Source of the DNA: Phascolarctobacterium succinatutens
Lineage (GTDB): Bacteria > Bacillota > Clostridia > Christensenellales > CAG-917
Direction: 5' to 3'
Assembly (NCBI GenBank): GCA_963593735.1
Contig: CAVBBF010000002.1
Location: 17,762-81,761 of the forward strand
Length of the DNA stretch: 64,000 bases
The stretch's first letter is position 1. The number at the start of each line of letters is the position of its first letter. The translations under genes and the position numbers were made by a program. Positions 6,003 through 26,690 of the stretch are shown here, in pieces. Under the pieces are notes generated by a model. It did no database searches, was not told the origin of the DNA, and worked only from the letters and a program-made list of their open reading frames with translations.

Positions 6003-7058
6003 TTATTTTTCGACGTTTTCGAGGTATCTTCTGCGAAGTTGACCGCACGCACCCTCTATGTCGTTGCCCAAACTTCTGCGTATTGTTGCCGACACGCCGA
6101 GTTTTTCGAGTTTATGCAAAAATTCTTCCGTTGCGTCAACGCTCGGCGCGATATGATTGCGCTCCTTGACCTCGTTGAGCCTTATGAGATTGACGTGCGA
6201 CGGAAAGCCTTTCAAGAGCCTTGCGAGTTCTCTTGCGCAAGCGTCCGAGTCGTTTTCGCCCTTAATGAGCGTGTACTCGAATATGACTCTACGCCCCGTC
6301 TTGTCGAAATAGTATCTTGCGCTGTCTACGAGTTGCTTAACGGAATACGCTCTGTTTACGGGCATAAGCGCGCTTCTAAGGTCGTCGAACGGCGCGTGCA
6401 GACTTATCGAAAGCGTGACTTTGTGTCCGCTGTCGGCAAACTTGCTGATTTTGTCGCAAAGCCCCGAAGTCGACAAGGAGATATTGCGCTCGCTGATATT
6501 TATTCCGCTCGAATCGCTCACTTTGTCGAGAAATTCAAGCACGTTGTCATAGTTGTCGAAAGGTTCGCCGCTTCCCATAAGCACGAGATTGGTCACCGCT
6601 CTCGACTTTGCGTTGCCGTCGTTATCGCGATTTACGCAGATGACTTGACCGAGCATTTCGGCAGGCGTGAGATTCCTCACGAGTCCGTCGAGGGTCGAAG
6701 CGCAGAACGTACACCCCATACGGCAACCTATTTGCGTTGATAAGCACAGTGTATCGCCGTAATCGTGCGGCATATACACGCCCTCAATGAGATTGTCGTC
6801 CAAGAGGCGGAACAGATACTTTTTAGTGCCGGACTTGCCCGTAAACACTTCGAGAATACTCACGGGATTCGCAACGAAATTCTCTTTAAGACGTTCTCTC
6901 AAATCCTTTTTGAGCGAGGTCATTTCGTCGAAGTCTTTTCCGTCTTGCAAAAACGAGTAGATTTGCGAAGCGGTATATTTCGGACAATCGGGAATAAGAG
7001 AGGCAATTTCCTCTCTGCTAAGTCCGAGCATAACCGATTTTTGTATACTTTCGCTCAT
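6003..7058 (-). CDS. rlmN: 23S rRNA/tRNA (adenine-C2)-methyltransferase RlmN
   Basis: 351 aa with the radical-SAM motif CRMGCTFCAS and the C-terminal ...GACGQL typical of RlmN/Cfr. Confidence 0.9.
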   Translation of the reverse strand: MSESIQKSVMLGLSREEIASLIPDCPKYTASQIYSFLQDGKDFDEMTSLKKDLRERLKENFVANPVSILEVFTGKSGTKKYLFRLLDDNLIEGVYMPHDYGDTLCLSTQIGCRMGCTFCASTLDGLVRNLTPAEMLGQVICVNRDNDGNAKSRAVTNLVLMGSGEPFDNYDNVLEFLDKVSDSSGINISERNISLSTSGLCDKISKFADSGHKVTLSISLHAPFDDLRSALMPVNRAYSVKQLVDSARYYFDKTGRRVIFEYTLIKGENDSDACARELARLLKGFPSHVNLIRLNEVKERNHIAPSVDATEEFLHKLEKLGVSATIRRSLGNDIEGACGQLRRRYLENVEK

Positions 7059-8335
7059 TTTATCCTCTCAATCTTTGCGATAAAGAATCCGTCGTATTCC
7101 TCGTGCGGCAAGATTTGAATCATGCCGTCGTTATCTTTGTATTTTCCGCCGTCGATACGGTCGAGTCCGTCAATCTTTTCAAGCGCGAAACCGTCGTTTT
7201 TCGCAAGAAAATCGTTTACAACGTCCTCGTTTTCTTCATTGAACAGCGTGCAGGTGGAATAAACCATTCTGCCGCCGACTTTGAGATATTTTGCGGCGTT
7301 TTCAATGATTTTCCGTTGCGTATCGGCAAGTTCCTTGACGCATTTTTCGTCCTTATTCAAGAACACGTCGGGGTGCTTTTTGAACGTTCCGAGGCACGAA
7401 CAAGGCGCGTCGCAAAGCACGAAATCGAAGGAATCCTTCCATTCGCCTGAAAAAACGCAAGCGTCGGCTTGAATCGCCTTTACGTTTGGCGTATGCATAC
7501 GGTTTTTGTACTTTTGAATGAGCGCGACTCTATGCGGATAGAGGTCGCACGCCGTGATTTTTCCGTGCGGACAAACCTCGCTCATATACACCGCTTTTCC
7601 GCCGGGTGCCGAACATATATCGAGAACTTGCGCCCCGTCCGTAACACTAAAAGCCTTAACGGCGAGCATACTCGAAGGCGATTGAAACGTAACAAGCCCT
7701 TTGTCGAACATATGTTTCACGCAATCCGTCGCTTTTACGATATAGCCGCCAACGTCGCTCTTTCTGAACTCGACTTTGTTCTTTTTGAGCAAAAATTCTA
7801 CGTCGCTCGGCGTTGCCATACGGCTGTTTATGCGGATATGTTCGAGCGTATCGCTTTTTGCGGATATAATCTCGATTGCCTTTTCTTTGCCGTATTGCGC
7901 TACAAGTTTATCGCAAAACCATTTCGGTTTCGAGTAGGTCACCGACAAATAGCAATCGTCGTTTTGACTCGGAAGCGTAAACTTGTTGTTCGCAACTTTT
8001 TTGAGAACGGCGTTTACAAAACCGCTTGCGCCGCCCTTTCCGTTTGATTTTGCCACTTCCACGCACTCGCTGACGATTGCAAATTTCGGTACGTCCGTGA
8101 GATTAAGAAGCGCGTACGTTCCGATTTTCAAGAGCGTAAGCACGGATTTTTGCGGTTTTTTCTCGACGAGTTGATTGAGGATATACTCGATTTTCACGTT
8201 TTCTTCGAGCGTGCCGTACACGAGCCTCGTCGACATATCGCTCACGCGCTCGCCGAGGAACGCCATATTGCTGTACGTCCCCTCTTGAAACACTTTTGAT
8301 AGTATTTTGTATGCGCTGTCGATATGTTTTCTCAT
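7055..8335 (-). CDS. rsmB: 16S rRNA (cytosine967-C5)-methyltransferase RsmB
   Basis: 426 aa with a NusB-like N-terminus and an m5C methyltransferase core (DICSAPGGK, DAPCSCLGT). The fmt-rsmB neighbourhood is conserved. 4-nt overlap with rlmN. Confidence 0.85.
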   Translation of the reverse strand: MRKHIDSAYKILSKVFQEGTYSNMAFLGERVSDMSTRLVYGTLEENVKIEYILNQLVEKKPQKSVLTLLKIGTYALLNLTDVPKFAIVSECVEVAKSNGKGGASGFVNAVLKKVANNKFTLPSQNDDCYLSVTYSKPKWFCDKLVAQYGKEKAIEIISAKSDTLEHIRINSRMATPSDVEFLLKKNKVEFRKSDVGGYIVKATDCVKHMFDKGLVTFQSPSSMLAVKAFSVTDGAQVLDICSAPGGKAVYMSEVCPHGKITACDLYPHRVALIQKYKNRMHTPNVKAIQADACVFSGEWKDSFDFVLCDAPCSCLGTFKKHPDVFLNKDEKCVKELADTQRKIIENAAKYLKVGGRMVYSTCTLFNEENEDVVNDFLAKNDGFALEKIDGLDRIDGGKYKDNDGMIQILPHEEYDGFFIAKIERIK

Positions 8336-8484
8336 TCGTTCCCTATAAAAATTTGCGGATTATTTGCAGTTGTTCTCTGCTGTTTTTTCGTTGTATGCCG
8401 TATGTGTCCTAACGTTTGCGTTTGCGGTTTTTCGTCACAGTACACGGCTCAATTTATATGTTACAAGCAATCTAATGTGCCGTT

Positions 8485-9423
8485 TCACTCTAATTTCGTG
8501 CCGATTTCGACGTTTCTGCCGAGCAAAAAAGCATTGTCGCTCATACGTTTTCCGCCTTCGAGTTGAATCTCTAAGAGCCTGACAACGCCGTCTGCGACCT
8601 TTACGAACAATCCCTCTTTCGCAGAGGATTTGACGACTTGTCCGAACTCGAAAGAATCGACGTTTTCGACGTTGCAATCCGCCTTTTCGACTTTGAAAAC
8701 TTTGAGTGATTTTCCGAAAACGTGCGTAAACGCCGACGGCCACGGAGACATACCTCGCACAAAACAATCGATTTGACGAGCGGTTTTTGAAAAGTCGATG
8801 TTGCCGTCCCCTTTACTTATCATCGAGCAATGCGTCGCTTTGCTTTCGTCTTGCGGCACGAACACGGCTTTTCCGCTTTCGACAAGGGATATCGCCTCGC
8901 AAATCGCCTCGCCGCCGAGAATCGCGAGTCTGTCGAACAACTCGCCTGCCGTTTCGTCTTTTCCGATGGGCGTTGCTTTTTCAAGCAAAATATCGCCTGC
9001 GTCCACCGCCTTTACCGTGCGCATAATGGTTATGCCGCTTTGTTCGTCGCCGTTGATAATGGACCATTGAATGGGCGAAGAACCTCTGTATTTCGGCAAA
9101 AGCGAAGCGTGTACGTTGAGTACGCCGAATTTCGGAATCGCCAAAAATCTTTCGCTCAAAATCTGACCGAACGCCGCCGTAACGACGATGTCGGGATTGA
9201 GATTTTCAATGTCCTCTATGCCCTCTCTCGACACTTTTTCGTACTGTAAAACGGGTATCGAGAGTTCTTGCGCCTTGACTTTGAGCGCAGAGGGTTTGAG
9301 TTGGTATCCTCGCCCGACGGGTTTGTCGAGACCTGTCACGACTGCTGACACCGAATATACCGAATTAAGTTTTTCAAGCACCGTCGCCGAAAAGTCGGGA
9401 CTGCCCATAAACACGATTTTCAT
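8485..9423 (-). CDS. fmt: Methionyl-tRNA formyltransferase
   Basis: 312 aa, MKIVFMGSPDF...NVHASLLPKYRGSSPIQ. Confidence 0.9.
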   Translation of the reverse strand: MKIVFMGSPDFSATVLEKLNSVYSVSAVVTGLDKPVGRGYQLKPSALKVKAQELSIPVLQYEKVSREGIEDIENLNPDIVVTAAFGQILSERFLAIPKFGVLNVHASLLPKYRGSSPIQWSIINGDEQSGITIMRTVKAVDAGDILLEKATPIGKDETAGELFDRLAILGGEAICEAISLVESGKAVFVPQDESKATHCSMISKGDGNIDFSKTARQIDCFVRGMSPWPSAFTHVFGKSLKVFKVEKADCNVENVDSFEFGQVVKSSAKEGLFVKVADGVVRLLEIQLEGGKRMSDNAFLLGRNVEIGTKLE

Positions 9424-9486
9424 AACGTCTTCTTTGTTCTTTTTATAATTTATTTGACTTTTATTGCGCTTCTTACGCAGCGTATT

Positions 9487-9945
9487 TCAGTCTTTTTCGT
9501 CGAGAAGTTGTTTGCACTTCGACGTATACACTATTCCGTCCAAGTGGTCGATTTCGTGACAAAACGCTCTTGCCGTAAAGCCTTCGACTTTATATTTTTG
9601 CTCCTTGCCGAATCTGTCGAGAGCGGTGACTTTCACTTTCATAGGACGGGTCACTTCGCCGTACTTTTTGGGCACCGACAAACAGCCTTCAAGTCCCGTT
9701 TGTTCGCCGCTTTGCGAGGTTATTACGGGGTTTACAAGTTCAAAAAAACCGTCTTCGGTGTCGACAACGCACACTCGCTTCAAAACTGCCACTTGCGGTG
9801 CGGCAAGTCCTGCGCCGTTTGCGGCTTTTACGGTGTCTTTCATATCGTCAAGCAAAGTCCAAAGCCTTTGGTCAAACTTGTCCACTTCCCTACATTTTTT
9901 CGTTAAAATGGGGTCGGGCACTTTGACAATCAATCTTTTTGCCAT
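9487..9945 (-). CDS. def: Peptide deformylase
   Basis: 152 aa with the GAGLAAPQV, EGCLSVP and HEIDHLDG motifs. Confidence 0.9.
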   Translation of the reverse strand: MAKRLIVKVPDPILTKKCREVDKFDQRLWTLLDDMKDTVKAANGAGLAAPQVAVLKRVCVVDTEDGFFELVNPVITSQSGEQTGLEGCLSVPKKYGEVTRPMKVKVTALDRFGKEQKYKVEGFTARAFCHEIDHLDGIVYTSKCKQLLDEKD

Positions 9946-19757: not shown

Positions 19758-19986
19758 AACGAGCGCCTTTTTGCGACTTTTTGTCGCATTTTAACTACAA
19801 CCACTATACCACATATTGTGCCGTTTATCAATTTTTTCAAGAAAATAGCACAAAAATCCTCGAAAAAAGTGCGTTTGGATTATTGATTTAATAAATCAAT
19901 TATGTTATCCTATTCATATCTTGGATTATAGAGGGATTTTTTTATACGAAAATTCTTCTGTTTTCCGCGCGGAGGAATTTATTTTT

Positions 19987-21618
19987 ATGGTAAATTTTGA
20001 TGAAATCGAGTTTCTTGAAAGCGAAATCGTGGACGATGACCCCACCGCCCCCGTCGGCACTTTGGTGCATATCACCGAGGATGGTAAAGTCGAACCCGTT
20101 GAACAAAAAGACAATCGGGCAGTCGAATCCGACGTGCAAAACGAAACTCGCCAAGACGAGATGGTTGAGGTCGAAAATTCCGATAACGAACAAAACGATA
20201 TGGCGCAAACCATAACGACGGACATTCAAGACGAGCCGCAAATCGAAGAAACCGTTAAGCCCGAAGATGAGGTTGTAGAAATTTCTCAACCCGATACGAT
20301 CGAGCAAACGGAAGAAGCCAAAGATGCAGCCGACGTTGCAGGCGAGCAAGCCATGCAAGTCGAAGACGAACCGGCAGAAACCGTCGAAACGGAATCCGCA
20401 CCCGAAATTGCAGACGAAACTGTCGTAGAACCCAGCGATGAAGCACAAGAGGTCGCACCGCAAGCCGAAATCGTCGAAGAAACTTCCGCACTTGAAGAAA
20501 CAATGCCCGTCGAAGAAACCGTTGCGGAAAGCAACGCGGTTGTCGATGAATCCGCGCAAGCAGCGAAAGACGAGCAAATCGCAGTCGAAGCCCCCGTGCA
20601 AAAGACAAGAAAACCGAGAAAACCTGCGCAAAAGAAAGAAGCCGCACCCGATGTCGTCAACGACGATGAACACAAGACTTCCCTCAACCTCAAAAACGGC
20701 AAGTCCGTGAACGAGGAATTGTTCGGAACGAATTTCGAGATTCAACAACCTGCAAAGGCAAAAATCGTGTCCACCAAGAAGAAACAAGAAAAGGCGGAAG
20801 ATTTGTGGGCGGTTGCAAGCGTTGCGCAACCCAAGAAAGAAACCGCTACGGCAAAGGAAGATGCGCAAAAAGATACGGTGCCCGTCAAAAAGACAACGAA
20901 AAAAGCGGTCAAAACGACAGAATCCGCCCCCAAAGCGGAAAAAATTGCTGTCGAATCCGCTCCGAAATCAAACGACGAGGATGTCAAATCGGCACCCAAG
21001 AAAACCGCTTCCAAAAAGTCAACAAAAGTTGAAAATATAAACAAATCTACGGAGGAAACAAAAGTGGCAAAAGCAACGGAAAAGGCAGCAGCGGAAGAAA
21101 AGACCGTGAAAGCGAGCAAGACAGCAGCAAAAGAAGCACCAGTCAAGGAAGAAAAGGCTCCAAAAGCGGAAACAAAAACCGCAGCAAAATCAGATGAGAC
21201 CGTTATCGTTGAAGGCGAAGGCAAAACGCACGGCAAGTACGTCATCAAAAAGACGGACAAAGGCAACTTTGTGTTCAAACTTTATTCCTCGAATTACAGA
21301 GTCGTGGCAATCGGCGCACAAGCCTACACCACTCTCGGCGCGGCAAAAATCGGCATTCAGAGCATAATCAACAACGCCGAAAAAGCGCCGATCGAAAACC
21401 AAACTTTGAAAAACTATGAAACGTTGAAGTTCCCCAAATGGGAAATCTATCTTGACAAGAAAGGCGAATATCGTCTCCGCTTGTACGCAACCAACGGAAG
21501 CCTCATCGCAACCACCAACGACGGCTATGTTGACATCACAGGCGCAAAGAACGGCATTGCGGCAGTATCAAGAGCAAGCAAGGGCTGCGCAATCGTGAGA
21601 AACGACAACCTTTGGTAA
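19987..21618 (+). CDS. Low-complexity acidic/lysine-rich protein with C-terminal tandem DUF1508 (YegP-like) domains
   Basis: I place the start at ATG 19987, with GGAGG at 19971-19975. The track ORF instead begins at a TTG at 19921. The last 128 aa (21232-21615) contain two YegP-like repeats (GKYVIKKTDKGNFVFKLYSSNYRVVAIGAQAY... and KWEIYLDKKGEYRLRLYATNGSLIATTNDGY...). Confidence 0.6.
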   Translation: MVNFDEIEFLESEIVDDDPTAPVGTLVHITEDGKVEPVEQKDNRAVESDVQNETRQDEMVEVENSDNEQNDMAQTITTDIQDEPQIEETVKPEDEVVEISQPDTIEQTEEAKDAADVAGEQAMQVEDEPAETVETESAPEIADETVVEPSDEAQEVAPQAEIVEETSALEETMPVEETVAESNAVVDESAQAAKDEQIAVEAPVQKTRKPRKPAQKKEAAPDVVNDDEHKTSLNLKNGKSVNEELFGTNFEIQQPAKAKIVSTKKKQEKAEDLWAVASVAQPKKETATAKEDAQKDTVPVKKTTKKAVKTTESAPKAEKIAVESAPKSNDEDVKSAPKKTASKKSTKVENINKSTEETKVAKATEKAAAEEKTVKASKTAAKEAPVKEEKAPKAETKTAAKSDETVIVEGEGKTHGKYVIKKTDKGNFVFKLYSSNYRVVAIGAQAYTTLGAAKIGIQSIINNAEKAPIENQTLKNYETLKFPKWEIYLDKKGEYRLRLYATNGSLIATTNDGYVDITGAKNGIAAVSRASKGCAIVRNDNLW

Positions 21619-21635
21619 GCAACAAAAACACATTC

Positions 21636-21662
21636 AAAAAGGACGCAATTTGCGTCCTTTTT
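21636..21662. terminator. Bidirectional intrinsic terminator
   Basis: AAAAA-GGACGCA-ATT-TGCGTCC-TTTTT, lying between the convergent DUF1508 and DUF1893 genes. Confidence 0.75.
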
Positions 21663-21689
21663 CATTACCTTTTGCGTTTATCCTTTTTA

Positions 21690-22127
21690 TTATTTATTTG
21701 CGTTTTGAGAGCGCAAAAATGCAAGTTTGTGTTTTATCGCGGCAAGACATTCGTCGGGGTTTTGCAAGTCTTTTACCGCTTCTTCCATCGGACAACTTCC
21801 CGTGCCTTGCCTATTAACAATCACGTCTGCGAGAATGCCGTATTCGGCGTAAAGCCCGTTTAATCTAAGATAATCATAAGCGGTTTTTGACATAACGTTT
21901 GCGTACACGGCGGCGATTCCGCTTTTGACGAACATCGAGGCAACCGCCTTACCGACGATTACGTCGGCGGCGCAAAAGCCTCTCAAATCGACGTTGTCGT
22001 CGATATAACCCACCATAGGAAAAACCCCGCGTTTGTCGGAGAGAAACAAAATTTCGTCCTTGCAGAGCGCAAGAGTATGCCCTGCGAGATTGTTCTTTGC
22101 TTTTTGTAAATCTGTTGCGTTATACAT
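21690..22127 (-). CDS. DUF1893 (TM1506-like) domain protein
   Basis: 145 aa. The segments ...ADVIVGKAVASMFV...NRQGTGSCPMEEAV resemble the TM1506 family as I remember it. Confidence 0.6.
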   Translation of the reverse strand: MYNATDLQKAKNNLAGHTLALCKDEILFLSDKRGVFPMVGYIDDNVDLRGFCAADVIVGKAVASMFVKSGIAAVYANVMSKTAYDYLRLNGLYAEYGILADVIVNRQGTGSCPMEEAVKDLQNPDECLAAIKHKLAFLRSQNANK

Positions 22128-24732: not shown

Positions 24733-25317
24733 TCAGATTTCGCTGTTGTCGTCGCTACCATTGTTGCCGTCAGCAAAGAACGATATGTTTTCTTGATCGG
24801 CAGGTTCGGAATTTATATCCTTGATTGCAAGAGTTTTTAGCACGCCGCTCACACATCTAAAAACGGCAATAGCCAAAATGACAAACGCACCGATCAAAAG
24901 CGTCGGATCCGTTCCGCTCTGCACAAAATCGAATATCGCCCCGATGAGGAAGATGCCGGTTGCGGCATAGTTGAAGCCTTGCGCGATTTTGAGTTGGCGC
25001 AACGATTGCTTGATGCTCTGCGCGTCTTTGTTGACGGATTTGAGGGAAATCACAGTGCCGACAAGCGAGAAAATGACCGCACACAAGCATATTATACCGA
25101 GCAAAATTGCAAGTATGCCGAAAAGGCTCGTCGCAAATGCGCGCGCAACGTCGGCGGTTGCGCCTTCAATCGTGCCGTCACCCTCCGTCGGGTCGGCGTT
25201 TAACAAAAGCACCCCCGTGACGAAACACGCAATTGCAAGCCCGACATATGCAACCGTGCTTAGCAAATCCAACACGCCCGACGCTATAATCTTTGGTCTC
25301 GATTTCGAATATTTCAT
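24733..25317 (-). CDS. Hypothetical integral membrane protein
   Basis: 194 aa with 4-5 hydrophobic segments and an acidic C-terminal tail (EPADQENISFFADGNNGSDDNSEI). I recognise no family. Confidence 0.5.
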   Translation of the reverse strand: MKYSKSRPKIIASGVLDLLSTVAYVGLAIACFVTGVLLLNADPTEGDGTIEGATADVARAFATSLFGILAILLGIICLCAVIFSLVGTVISLKSVNKDAQSIKQSLRQLKIAQGFNYAATGIFLIGAIFDFVQSGTDPTLLIGAFVILAIAVFRCVSGVLKTLAIKDINSEPADQENISFFADGNNGSDDNSEI

Positions 25318-25513
25318 ACAAACCTCTTGACTATCGAATATTTTATAAAATTATTATATCATCTTCTTTACGCATTGTAAATAAATAAAAATCTACGTCG
25401 TTTTAGTACGCTTGCAATACTTTAACCGCAATTTCAGCATAGATTTCTTGATTAAAATATGTGACACTTTATGTGACAGAATACAGCGGAAACGGGCGGA
25501 AAATCAAACACAT

Positions 25514-25544
25514 AAAAAAACAAAAACCCCACTAAACAGTAGGG
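25514..25544 (-). terminator. Intrinsic terminator closing the tRNA-Ser/repeat unit
   Basis: On the minus strand, a CCCTACT-GTTT-AGTGGGG hairpin (one mismatch) followed by TTTTTGTTTTTTT. Confidence 0.6.
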
Positions 25545-25561
25545 TTTTTGCACTTTGTTGC

Positions 25562-26352
25562 GGAGAAGATGTAAGTCGTTGCTATGCAACAAACATCTCT
25601 TTGCTCCGCAGGTCACCTGCCAGCGTAGACAATCCTGCAATGCTTCGCATTTTTACTTTTTCTTATGCTCGCAAACTCGTGCAAGCACGGTTGCGGACAG
25701 AAGAAGATGTAAGTCGTTGCCTTGCAACGAACATCTCCTTGCGCCGCAGGCTAAGAAGAGATTCGCCAATCAGCGAAGCGTGTGTGCTTGCACACATAGC
25801 GGAGCGTGCAACGAAGAGTTCGGCAACACAGTTGCCAACGGCATGAGAAATGCCGTTGAATCTCTCTTCTCCTTCTCTGCTTTTTGAAGAAGATGTAAGT
25901 CGTTGCTTTGCAACGAACATCTCTTTGCTCCGCAGGTCTCCTGCCGTCGTAGACAATCCTGCAATGCTACGCATTTTTGCTTTTCTTATGCTCGCAAACT
26001 CGTGCAAGCACGGTTGCGGCCAGAAGAAGATGTAAGTCGTTGCCTTGCAACGAACATCTCCTTGCGCCGCAGGCTAAGAAGAGATTCGCCAATCAGCGAA
26101 GCGTGTGTGCTTGCACACATAGCGGAGCGTGCAACGAAGAGTTCGGCAACACAGTTGCCAACGGCATGAGAAATGCCGTTGAATCTCTCTTCTCCTTCTC
26201 TGCTTTTTGAAGAAGATGTAAGTCGTTGCTTTGCAACGAACATCTCTTTGCTCCGCAGGTCTCCTGCCAGCGTAGACAATCCTGCAATGCTTCGCATTTT
26301 TGCTTTTTCTTATGCTCGCAAACTCGTGCAAGCACGGTTGCGGACAGAAGAA
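25562..26352 (-). repeat. Tandem composite repeat A1-B1-A2-B2-A3 (323-bp period), candidate structured-RNA array
   Basis: A units are about 132 nt (25562-25693, 25886-26016, 26209-26340) and differ at a few positions. The B units 25699-25885 and 26022-26208 read identical over 187 nt. Core hairpins lie at 25562-25612, 25700-25750, 25886-25936, 26023-26073 and 26209-26259. Strand was inferred from G-U pairs. Confidence 0.75.
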
Positions 26353-26382
26353 AAAGCAACCCTACGGGTTTCGCAGGATTGC
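26346..26382 (-). terminator. Hairpin plus U-tract immediately after tRNA-Ser
   Basis: On the minus strand, GCAATCCTGCG-AAACC-CGTAGGGTTGC followed by TTTTTCTTCT. It contains two G-U pairs that would be A-C mismatches on the plus strand. Confidence 0.6.
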
Positions 26383-26389
26383 CTTTCGG

Positions 26390-26482
26390 TGGCGGAGAAG
26401 AAGAGATTCGAACTCTTGAACCGCTTTTGACGGTTACGCGATTTCCAGTCGCGCGCCCTCGACCAAACTAGGCGACTTCTCC
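26390..26482 (-). tRNA. tRNA-Ser (anticodon GGA), class II with long variable arm, CCA encoded
   Basis: Folded by hand from the reverse complement. Acceptor stem GGAGAAG/CTTCTCC; D stem GCC/GGC. Anticodon stem CGCGA/TCGCG with loop CTGGAAA. Variable arm AACCG-TCAAAAG-CGGTT; T arm AAGAG-TTCGAAT-CTCTT. Discriminator G followed by CCA. Confidence 0.9.
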
Positions 26483-26488
26483 GTTTTT

Positions 26489-26538
26489 TGGTGGGAAGTC
26501 GAGGTTTGGTACGCAGTACCATTAAACACGACTTCTCC
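26489..26538 (-). ncRNA. tRNA-like minihelix / pseudo-tRNA fragment in the tRNA-Ser leader
   Basis: Minus strand: GGAGAAGTCGTGTTTAATGGTACTGCGTACCAAACCTCGACTTCCCACCA. The first 10 nt are identical to the tRNA-Ser 5' end. The 5' arm GG(A)GAAGTCG pairs with the 3' arm CGACTTCC, with one bulged A. There is an inner hairpin GGTAC-TGC-GTACC and a 3' ACCA. It does not fold as a cloverleaf. Confidence 0.3.
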
Positions 26539-26575
26539 ATAAGTTATATTTAATTATTTTAGTTGCTATACAAGT

Positions 26576-26643
26576 GGGTGGCAGTTGGAAGCGAATGGAA
26601 AACAAAACCATTTCCTCCAACTGTTCACGGGGTACTGCTACCC
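26576..26643. other. Long imperfect hairpin in the tRNA-Ser leader
   Basis: The outer arms GGGTGGCAG (26576-26584) and CTGCTACCC (26635-26643) enclose the hairpin TTGGAAGCGAATGG-AAAACAAAA-CCATTTCCTCCAA. The strand of function is ambiguous because the wobble evidence is mixed. Confidence 0.4.
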
Positions 26644-26661
26644 TCAAAACCCAACGTGACG

Positions 26662-26690
26662 ATTATATATCAACAAAGCGATTTTGACAA
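26662..26690 (-). promoter_or_regulatory. Near-consensus sigma-A promoter of the tRNA-Ser unit
   Basis: On the minus strand, TTGTCA (26690-26685), a 17-nt spacer, then TATAAT (26667-26662). Confidence 0.6.

Follow-up and report, generated by a model that had tools for sequence, protein, structure and literature searches.

A tRNA-anchored array of palindromic hairpins in gut Clostridia as a candidate set of secondary attachment sites

Layout of the array locus

The 64,000-nucleotide stretch of contig CAVBBF010000002.1 analyzed here (the window; Phascolarctobacterium succinatutens assembly GCA_963593735.1) carries a tandem array of hairpins in the interval that separates tRNA-Ser(GGA) and its terminator from the next gene. 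All features of this locus are read on the minus strand, and their order is given in the sense of the tRNA. Read in this way, the array runs from 26346 to 25562 as A-B-A-B-A, an alternation of A units (137/138 nt) and B units (186 nt) that are each closed by a three-tier hairpin of about 50 nt, referred to below as the module. A first-pass annotation of the same DNA had described five such hairpins with starts spaced 138/186/137/186 nt apart, each composed of a helix P2, a CUU bulge, a helix P3 (TCGTTGC/GCAACGA) and a triloop. Copy number, spacing and architecture were all recovered: the 38-nt core of the hairpin, GAGATGTTCGTTGCAARGCAACGACTTACATCTTCTTC, was matched on the minus strand at 25562, 25700, 25886, 26023 and 26209 with 0-3 mismatches each, compared to 0 matches predicted from shuffled sequence. 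The one stem substitution reported for copy 1 was located at exactly 25591, where a C>U change on the minus strand gives U.G on that strand and C.A on the plus strand.

By use of Tandem Repeats Finder, the array was described as a repeat of period 323 bp, present in 2.4 copies of 96% identity. The two B units were found to be 100% identical and the three A units to differ at 10 positions only, and the 323-bp A plus B repeat probably represents a recent duplication. Apart from this substitution, the annotation had assigned the differences that it located between copies to predicted loops; about 4 of the 10 A-unit differences are in loops, with 1 further difference making the wobble pair and the rest falling in linker, junction or A-tract positions. 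No compensatory pair was detected among the three A units and two B units of the window. Since the five copies are not independent evidence, tests of structure must come from other genomes.

Several elements lie between the tRNA and the first module and are named in Table 1. X is the tRNA 3' end with its trailer and X' an inverted copy of the same in each A unit. T1 is the terminator of the tRNA. S1 is a long palindrome with arms of 22 nt that were 86% complementary by repeat search, and H3 is a mini-hairpin. H3 is of the GCGAAGC/GCGUAGC type (GNA triloop) and occurs in the window at 26286-26298, 25963-25975 and 25640-25652 (minus strand); its loop reads GAA, GUA, ACA, AGA or UUU among relatives. 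Mini-hairpins of the GCGAAGC type are exceptionally stable as DNA. A promoter scan revealed no promoter-like site inside the array, which lies downstream of the conserved T1. The tRNA-Ser gene, its promoter, T1 and the distal terminator are all read on the minus strand, which supports the minus strand as the sense strand of the array if the array is transcribed.

Table 1. Coordinates of the tRNA-Ser(GGA) locus in the window, listed in tRNA sense.
Feature	Positions	Strand	Remarks
tRNA-Ser promoter, TTGTCA-17-TATAAT	26662..26690	-	strong; 11/12 consensus positions; kept in related loci
Structured leader, ~95 nt, promoter to tRNA; closing helix GUUGGG/CCCAC and two hairpins	26560..26655	-	
Upstream hairpin, 5' arm a copy of the tRNA 5' end GGAGAAGUCG	26490..26538	-	read from sequence
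tRNA-Ser(GGA) gene, CCA encoded	26390..26482	-	ARAGORN; Rfam tRNA 54.2 bits; last ~16 nt = attachment-site core
X, tRNA 3' end and trailer CUCCGCCACCGAAAGGCAAUCCUGC, complementary to X' of the A units	26373..26397	-	
T1, intrinsic tRNA terminator, 10-bp stem with two wobbles, then U tract UUUUUCUU	26346..26382	-	present in all loci
S1, long imperfect palindrome, U-tract arm/A-tract arm, apical CGUG-CUUG-CACG hairpin, first A unit	26300..26359	-	
H3, AAUGC-GAA-GCAUU mini-hairpin, GCGAAGC type	26286..26298	-	
X' of first A unit, inverted copy of tRNA 3' end and trailer (GCAGGAUUGU...GGCAGGAG)	26261..26285	-	
A unit copy 5 (first in tRNA sense), 138 nt	26209..26346	-	module 26209-26259
B unit copy 4, 186 nt, three internal hairpins	26023..26208	-	module 26023-26073
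A unit copy 3, 137 nt	25886..26022	-	module 25886-25936
B unit copy 2, 0 differences from copy 4	25700..25885	-	module 25700-25750
A unit copy 1 (last in tRNA sense)	25562..25699	-	module 25562-25612; 3' arm ends ...ACAUCUUCUCCGCAAC, core-like junction
Phage attachment-arm remnant abutting last module	25455..25561	-	strong terminator 25520-25551; two direct TGTCACATA repeats (25458-25480)
DUF2975 gene with promoter of its own	24733-25317	-	

By pattern scans and the neighboring CNNM gene, the same locus was found in about a dozen assemblies of a narrow, Borkfalkiaceae-like gut clade that includes Firmicutes CAG:238, a 'Christensenella sp.' metagenome-assembled genome and Clostridia of the Hadza gut; a CNNM homologue of 73% identity (P0109) is named Candidatus Borkfalkiaceae in its sources. 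The order in relatives (L-numbered below) is fixed: promoter, leader, 0-3 upstream hairpins, tRNA-Ser, T1, and 1-5 A or B units, each closed by the module. Even genomes of 99% CNNM identity differ in how many units they have and in which order, with A-B-A-B-A in the window versus A-A-partial B in L001. The gene downstream of the array differs among genomes (DUF2975, a restriction-modification (R-M) island and others), and the constant partner is the tRNA. No further module copies were detected in the 64-kb window, and scans of species-representative genomes and metagenome contigs gave one locus per genome. A deeper homologue search by way of CNNM lost synteny below about 78% identity and contributed L014 and L015/L016 as the only informative additions. 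Assemblies L023, L029 and L030 end at or within ~40 nt after tRNA-Ser(GGA), which is consistent with repeats or population heterogeneity at the locus. In L023 the terminator hairpin after the tRNA is of a different kind.

Copies of the tRNA ends and mobile elements at the core

When compared with the adjacent gene, the locus is built of direct and inverted copies of its own tRNA's ends. In the module, the tRNA 3' end (TCTTCTTCTCCGCCA) recurs as the 3' arm, and its inverted complement makes up the 5' arm. Full module copies end in ...ACAUCUUCUUCUCCGCCA and the tRNA in ...AAUCUCUUCUUCUCCGCCA, with the last 15 nt identical; a 15-nt exact block (UCUUCUUCUCCGCCA in full copies) is common to the module 3' arm and the tRNA 3' end in L004, L015 and L040. 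The copy of the core is degenerate in internal modules and in the last copy of the window, and a tRNA-end repeat of 15-18 nt closes the module in the same three relatives, including L015, where a single A unit lies between 18-nt direct repeats. Taken as one stretch, X', the linker and the module 5' arm correspond to the tRNA 3' end and trailer in inverted orientation. In the B unit, the closing helix derives from the T-arm/acceptor 3' strand of the tRNA in direct and inverted copies, and GAAUCUCUUCUU of the tRNA recurs at the 3' end of B. In this way, direct repeats of the tRNA 3' end, as expected of attachment sites, were found at the unit boundaries.

In related loci, mobile elements were found inserted exactly at the core CTCCGCCA, both at the tRNA and in modules, and the last module of the window is joined to a phage arm. 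At the tRNA core, a prophage that encodes a tyrosine integrase and a cI-like repressor directly abuts the tRNA end of L014; in L006, 1.76 kb of DNA is inserted between direct repeats of 41 bp that comprise the tRNA end and T1; L004 holds an island with a PD-(D/E)XK nuclease, a methyltransferase and AbiA (E = 7e-222) between the tRNA and the array; and the right end of a phage lies at the tRNA copy in L010/L039. In L040, the gene of a large serine recombinase abuts CTCCGCCACC. The frame of this recombinase (L040, oriented 7954-9682) continues past the attachment junction through T1 and the A unit into the module, where it terminates within P3, so that integration alters the recombinase C-terminus. 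Integrase genes were found beside the tRNA copy in L014 and L040 only.

At the last module, both an empty and an occupied site were observed. In L004 the last module-CTCCGCCA is followed directly by ATTATTGAAAACCC, whereas in L008 module-CTCGCGCCA is followed by a 3.3-kb R-M island that ends in GCTCCGCCA before ACTATTGAAAACCC, with the core duplicated. A beta-lactamase-like cassette was found within the array of L010. In the window and in L004, the last module continues into a phage arm of the L014 type; window positions 25455-25561 align with the DNA downstream of the genuine tRNA end, beside the integrase gene of the L014 prophage. The TGTCACATA repeats of this arm are likely arm-type integrase sites, and no integrase gene follows them in the window. 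Internal A-A junctions resemble products of unequal crossing-over between module CUUCUUCUC and the similar 5' arm of S1.

Small islands that lack an integrase form a family with TTCGATTNACGTTACTAAC plus the tRNA-Ser core as its end (L004 763-3913, minus strand; L008 4937-8138; L006 945-2465, minus strand; L010 3614-5158). Among the genes that they carry are those of an R-M system (a PD-(D/E)XK nuclease together with an N6_N4 methyltransferase and, in L008, also a Dam methyltransferase), of the reverse transcriptase-HEPN protein AbiA, of a beta-lactamase-like protein and of an unknown protein of 506 amino acids. The same TTCGATTNACGTTACTAAC end with the core was detected near the ends of the IMG/VR viral contigs L035-L037. 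An origin of the module from a phage P-arm was considered and rejected, as its similarity to the TTCGATTNACGTTACTAAC end motif was not significant (1108 of 2000 shuffles score as well).

Covariation, strand symmetry and the weighing of readings

Homologues were compared in an alignment of ten first units, taken from the tRNA end to the first module. RNAalifold recovered T1, S1, H3 and the module from these sequences; the 5' arm of S1 takes in the U tract of T1, its 3' arm takes in an A tract and its apex is a CUUG-type hairpin. In a mutually exclusive alternative, which was the minimum free energy (MFE) fold in 9 of the 10 sequences, X pairs with X' and closes a four-way junction. X and X' were found to covary, as the cognate pairing had the best total duplex energy of the 720 permutations of six genome types. 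For the four-way junction with the module, 95.4% of cells were paired, compared to 89.5% in shuffles and 35-48% in slid controls, and double changes occurred at 18 of 67 pairs, compared to 7.8 +/- 1.8 in shuffles, a level reached by 0 of 500 shuffles. Compensatory changes of the kind expected of a structured non-coding RNA, for which the first-pass annotation had proposed to examine homologues, were present. They are numerous in the helices neighboring the module. S1 has double changes at 9 of 20 pairs, and H3 is 100% paired in the ten homologues with double changes at 2 of 5 pairs. Within the module, eight sequences have G-C, one has U-A and one has A-U at the same P3 pair, and one P2 pair changes to U.G among homologues; the triloop is hypervariable, and the linker, bulge and other stem positions are nearly invariant.

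These observations bear on the proposal, made in the annotation, of a functional RNA from the minus strand. By such an account, read-through of T1 would generate a trailer RNA whose first unit folds as the four-way junction (X:X' closing helix, small hairpin, S1 and H3) and sequesters the tRNA 3' end, with the end-hairpins acting as processing or stability elements or as protein sites that release A and B small RNAs or control pre-tRNA maturation. The shared orientation of the array, the tRNA and both terminators speaks for this proposal, as do the covariation of junction and module, the covariation of X' with the tRNA trailer, and the near-invariance of the module with its bulge and linker around a free triloop. 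Furthermore, S1 of L015 has four wobbles that are all on the sense strand, and its sense fold is better by 15 kcal/mol. Module variants overall lean to G.U on the tRNA-sense strand over A.C by about 7 to 2, a ratio that is not significant and could stem from a transcription-associated C>T bias of the non-template strand. Other findings oppose a trailer RNA: the array is located beyond a good intrinsic terminator without an internal promoter, the number and order of units vary between near-identical strains, and S1 of the first unit of the window has three uncompensated changes. In addition, the comparison of loci directly links the module 3' arm, as an attachment-site core, to recombination of DNA. 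No RNA family was matched either. At the gathering score of Rfam 15 the tRNA alone passed, with no family for the array, and the best array-overlapping match of a permissive search was rnk_pseudo (38.4 bits versus a gathering score of 55), a match that stems from the distal terminator.

Strand-specific pairing, also expected of a structured non-coding RNA, was not observed outside T1. Among the ten homologues, T1 had 31 G.U cells versus 1 A.C cell, with one-sided exchanges between G.U and Watson-Crick pairs as expected of an intrinsic terminator. By contrast, the helices outside T1 had 607 Watson-Crick, 16 G.U, 11 A.C and 19 other cells. The ratio of 31:1 in T1 versus 16:11 elsewhere reveals T1 to be RNA-hairpin-like and the rest to be DNA-palindrome-like with random, unselected mismatches. 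Folding of the two strands (minus versus plus, in kcal/mol) favored the minus strand for T1 (-22.3 versus -11.0, in agreement with the strand bias claimed for 26346-26382), the distal terminator (-20.0 versus -13.4), the B-type module (-32.0 versus -28.4) and copy 1 (-25.0 versus -20.0), but was about equal for the A-type module (-22.0 versus -22.6); the A unit gave -47.1 versus -48.2. The strand comparison suggested by the annotation thus came out for the minus strand in part, and among modules only for the B-type and copy 1. Folding z-scores of the whole array were about equal on the two strands (-11.6 and -12.05), and the sense-minus-antisense MFE difference ranged from -15.4 to +5.1 kcal/mol across homologues. 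The annotation had also described the seventh P2 pair as G-U on the minus strand in every copy. This claim is weakened, as the pair depends on the register: in A-type modules an A.C mismatch directly follows the G.U, such that both strands are equally served, and on both strands the register preferred by RNAfold has nine Watson-Crick pairs and a 1-nt bulge. Taken together, the compensatory changes in relatives and the minus sense, if transcribed, remain of the proposed RNA, whereas the RNA-specific pattern fails outside T1, and we regard a functional trailer RNA as possible but rather unlikely.

Processes acting on DNA can generate similar patterns. Template switching creates and maintains perfect stems, multi-base compensatory changes and loop inversions (PMC8794818). 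The P3 triloops form three reverse-complement pairs (AAA/TTT, ATA/TAT and AAG/CTT), of which AAG/CTT joins two B-type modules; the p value was 0.013 by a uniform null and 0.058 by a composition-matched null. Loop inversion by template switching is suggested by these pairs, and no more than suggested.

We favor, with a probability of roughly one half, the explanation that the locus is a DNA-level array of palindromised secondary attachment sites that was amplified by unequal crossing-over. The tRNA-derived sequence of the modules, the mobile elements at tRNA and module cores, the strand symmetry outside T1, the triloop pairs, the variation in unit number and order between very close genomes, the location beyond T1 without an internal promoter and the precedent at ssrA of Dehalococcoides (PMC3146451) speak for this explanation. 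The module would be a palindromised copy of the tRNA-Ser 3' end, with P3 as a perfect 7-bp palindrome at the dyad, and the last ~15 nt of the tRNA would form the crossover core for several integrative elements of the clade. If the core serves such elements, each module is a secondary attachment site or an old recombination junction. The array may have grown by site-specific recombination at the cores and by unequal crossing-over between identical modules, and the stems would be kept complementary by the dynamics of DNA palindromes (template switching) and not by selection on RNA. Any read-through past T1 would carry the hairpins as a by-product. Understood in this manner, the locus varies a known theme, the accretion of elements at tRNA and transfer-messenger RNA (tmRNA) genes bounded by 3'-end repeats.

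A number of results weigh against this DNA-level explanation. The module and linker (GGAGACCUGCGGAGCAAAGAGAUGUUC...) form the best-conserved non-tRNA sequence of the locus, with ~90% identity between the window and L015 compared to ~77% for the whole locus. Plain scars should decay, so conservation of the module calls for a sequence-specific function or for spread by mobile DNA. The asymmetric features (CUU bulge, internal loop) show no variation, contrary to what is expected of a neutral palindrome, and module variants lean to sense-strand G.U over A.C by about 7 to 2. The junction positions were deduced from only a few loci. A tblastn search of the 64-kb window with one tyrosine integrase and one serine recombinase gave no match; distant IntI relatives were not searched by profile. 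No module internal to a phage or plasmid was found in the collections searched: phage and plasmid BLAST with the whole locus gave no match, scans of viral contigs gave 0 matches for the module and 0 for the B hairpin, and the 2 matches obtained with linker plus module both lay in host DNA that flanks prophage ends. The homologues span little phylogenetic depth (CNNM identity of at least 78%). The high conservation of module and linker, the invariant bulge and the reason for the inverted copies are not accounted for by palindromised attachment sites, and these leftovers keep the trailer RNA and a resemblance to integron attC sites alive as alternatives.

The second of these alternatives holds that the modules are folded single-stranded DNA sites analogous to attC, at which a dedicated recombinase exchanges cassettes at the core near the hairpin base. 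The tiers would correspond to an R box, an unpaired spacer, an L box with extrahelical bases and a variable tip, and the tRNA end to attI. The location of the core in the right arm of a conserved imperfect palindrome, the invariant 3-nt bulge and the hypervariable tip agree with this proposal, and so do the cassette-like insertions of one or few genes at core copies, the differences between strains in unit content and order, and the H3 mini-hairpin, given the stability of its type as DNA. Yet no homologue of an integron-type integrase or recombinase was found in the window by the tblastn search described above, the gene cassettes end in TTCGATTNACGTTACTAAC and not in the module (with the non-significant similarity given above), and the internal A-A junctions look like products of unequal crossing-over or deletion instead of whole cassettes. 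The modules are also near-identical in sequence, unlike most attC sites, and R'/R'' consensus boxes were absent on inspection. We consider this analogy improbable. The same low confidence applies to its broader form, by which the module is the site of an undescribed tRNA-anchored cassette platform of gut Clostridia, a folded attC-like hairpin that mimics the tRNA-Ser 3' end and captures and shuffles short non-coding units and defense cassettes (R-M, AbiA); if true, such a platform would be a Gram-positive functional analogue of the integron.

A duplex palindrome bound by a dimeric protein like an operator (e.g., 7-3-7 TCGTTGC NNN GCAACGA), which the annotation had named as the rival to its RNA, is likewise not favored and seems very improbable: P3 is perfect with a free spacer sequence, pairing is strand-symmetric and one position has symmetric double changes, but the spacer length is not fixed (2-3 nt), a one-sided 3-nt insertion breaks the dyad of the outer arms, the single locus lies after a terminator and distant from any promoter, and two different symmetric changes at one position, with no known co-varying protein, are better explained by hairpin pairing or template switching. 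Other candidates were rejected. Dispersed repeats of the repetitive extragenic palindromic (REP), bacterial interspersed mosaic element (BIME), enterobacterial repetitive intergenic consensus (ERIC) or miniature inverted-repeat transposable element (MITE) kinds do not fit a single locus per genome that is always beside tRNA-Ser(GGA), nor do clustered regularly interspaced short palindromic repeats (CRISPR) fit a single locus without spacers. A type III toxin-antitoxin (ToxI-like) array was dismissed since the downstream gene varies and the conserved partner is the upstream tRNA, and separate small RNAs from internal promoters since no such promoters were found. Mimicry of a tRNA-like cloverleaf or minihelix by the first unit was set aside, as the arms lack tRNA dimensions, and an invertible segment with X and X' as inversion sites had no support, as 10 of 10 loci have the same orientation.

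The locus illustrates how a convincing, covarying "RNA hairpin" can arise from DNA-level processes at a tRNA integration hotspot, and a terminator within the same alignment provides a practical internal control for G.U versus A.C. If the array consists of palindromised attachment sites, the flank of tRNA-Ser(GGA) carries conserved, amplifiable secondary sites where defense islands and prophages land, a property that bears on the accretion of defense islands in uncultured gut Clostridia and on the choice of landing pads for integrase tools. If it is an RNA, the locus encodes a new tRNA-trailer RNA that pairs with the 3' end of its own tRNA.

Upstream of the tRNA, the structured leader has 20 conserved pairs, 2 of them with double changes, in an alignment of seven loci. 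The sequence of its hairpin 1 differs lineage by lineage with the hairpin kept in all, and its hairpin 2 is long with compensatory changes in L023; the leader had no Rfam match. The 5' arm of the upstream hairpin copies the tRNA 5' end and the start of the D-arm (GGAGAAGUCGC), and the tRNA's own leader sequence precedes each unit. Relatives have 0-3 tandem copies of this hairpin, including three of 58 nt in L001 (1514-1687) and two in L013 (oriented 6768-6880). Integration at the tRNA 3' end does not account for these copies of the 5' end. Neighboring genes in the window encode CNNM, DUF2975, an aldo-keto reductase and an ECF component. Elsewhere in the window, an open reading frame of 565 amino acids (19921-21618, plus strand) has two C-terminal DUF1508 stretches, and the bin around it (20001-22000) has an extreme AT skew of +0.35 compared to about -0.15 elsewhere, which suggests a compositionally odd, repetitive protein.

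Comparison with known systems

Some tRNA precursors release RNAs from their 3' external transcribed spacer (3'ETS). The 3'ETS-leuZ of E. coli is a short, single-stranded sponge located upstream of the operon terminator. The array resembles such RNAs in being non-coding, directly downstream of a tRNA and of the same sense, and it could be released from the precursor; unlike them, it lies beyond the terminator and is made of long self-complementary repeats. REP/BIME and ERIC elements are similar as mosaic tandem imperfect palindromes that are intergenic, downstream of a gene and transcribed only within neighboring units, but these occur at tens to hundreds of dispersed positions in a genome, whereas the array is one locus beside tRNA-Ser(GGA).

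Integron attC sites share with the module an imperfect palindrome that marks the 3' end of a unit, invariant bulged bases with a variable terminal loop, a crossover near the base of the right arm, and an array of varying content beside a fixed primary site. They differ in that no IntI-type integrase was found nearby (tblastn with a tyrosine integrase query; distant IntI not profile-searched), that the R''/R' (RYYYAAC/GTTRRRY) and L boxes are absent from the module and its conserved 3-nt bulge is in another context, and that the modules are near-identical, the units mostly non-coding and the gene cassettes provided with another end motif.

The closest parallel is the accretion of elements at tRNA and tmRNA genes. 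Phages that integrate at tRNA-Ser, such as mv4, are known. Most units of the array differ from accreted islands in being non-coding pieces of 137-186 nt, a conserved three-tier palindrome combines the repeated tRNA end with an inverted copy of it, further inverted copies derive from the tRNA end with its trailer (X') and from the 5' end (upstream hairpins), and the modules are more conserved than scars should be. Nevertheless, the two share the tRNA 3' end as the crossover core, partial copies of this end downstream, prophages and cargo islands (R-M, AbiA) between the copies, a serine recombinase gene at a junction, a short conserved motif just upstream of each repeat and a content that is strongly strain-variable. 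At ssrA of Dehalococcoides, tandem islands are similarly bounded by direct repeats of the ssrA 3' end (PMC3146451).

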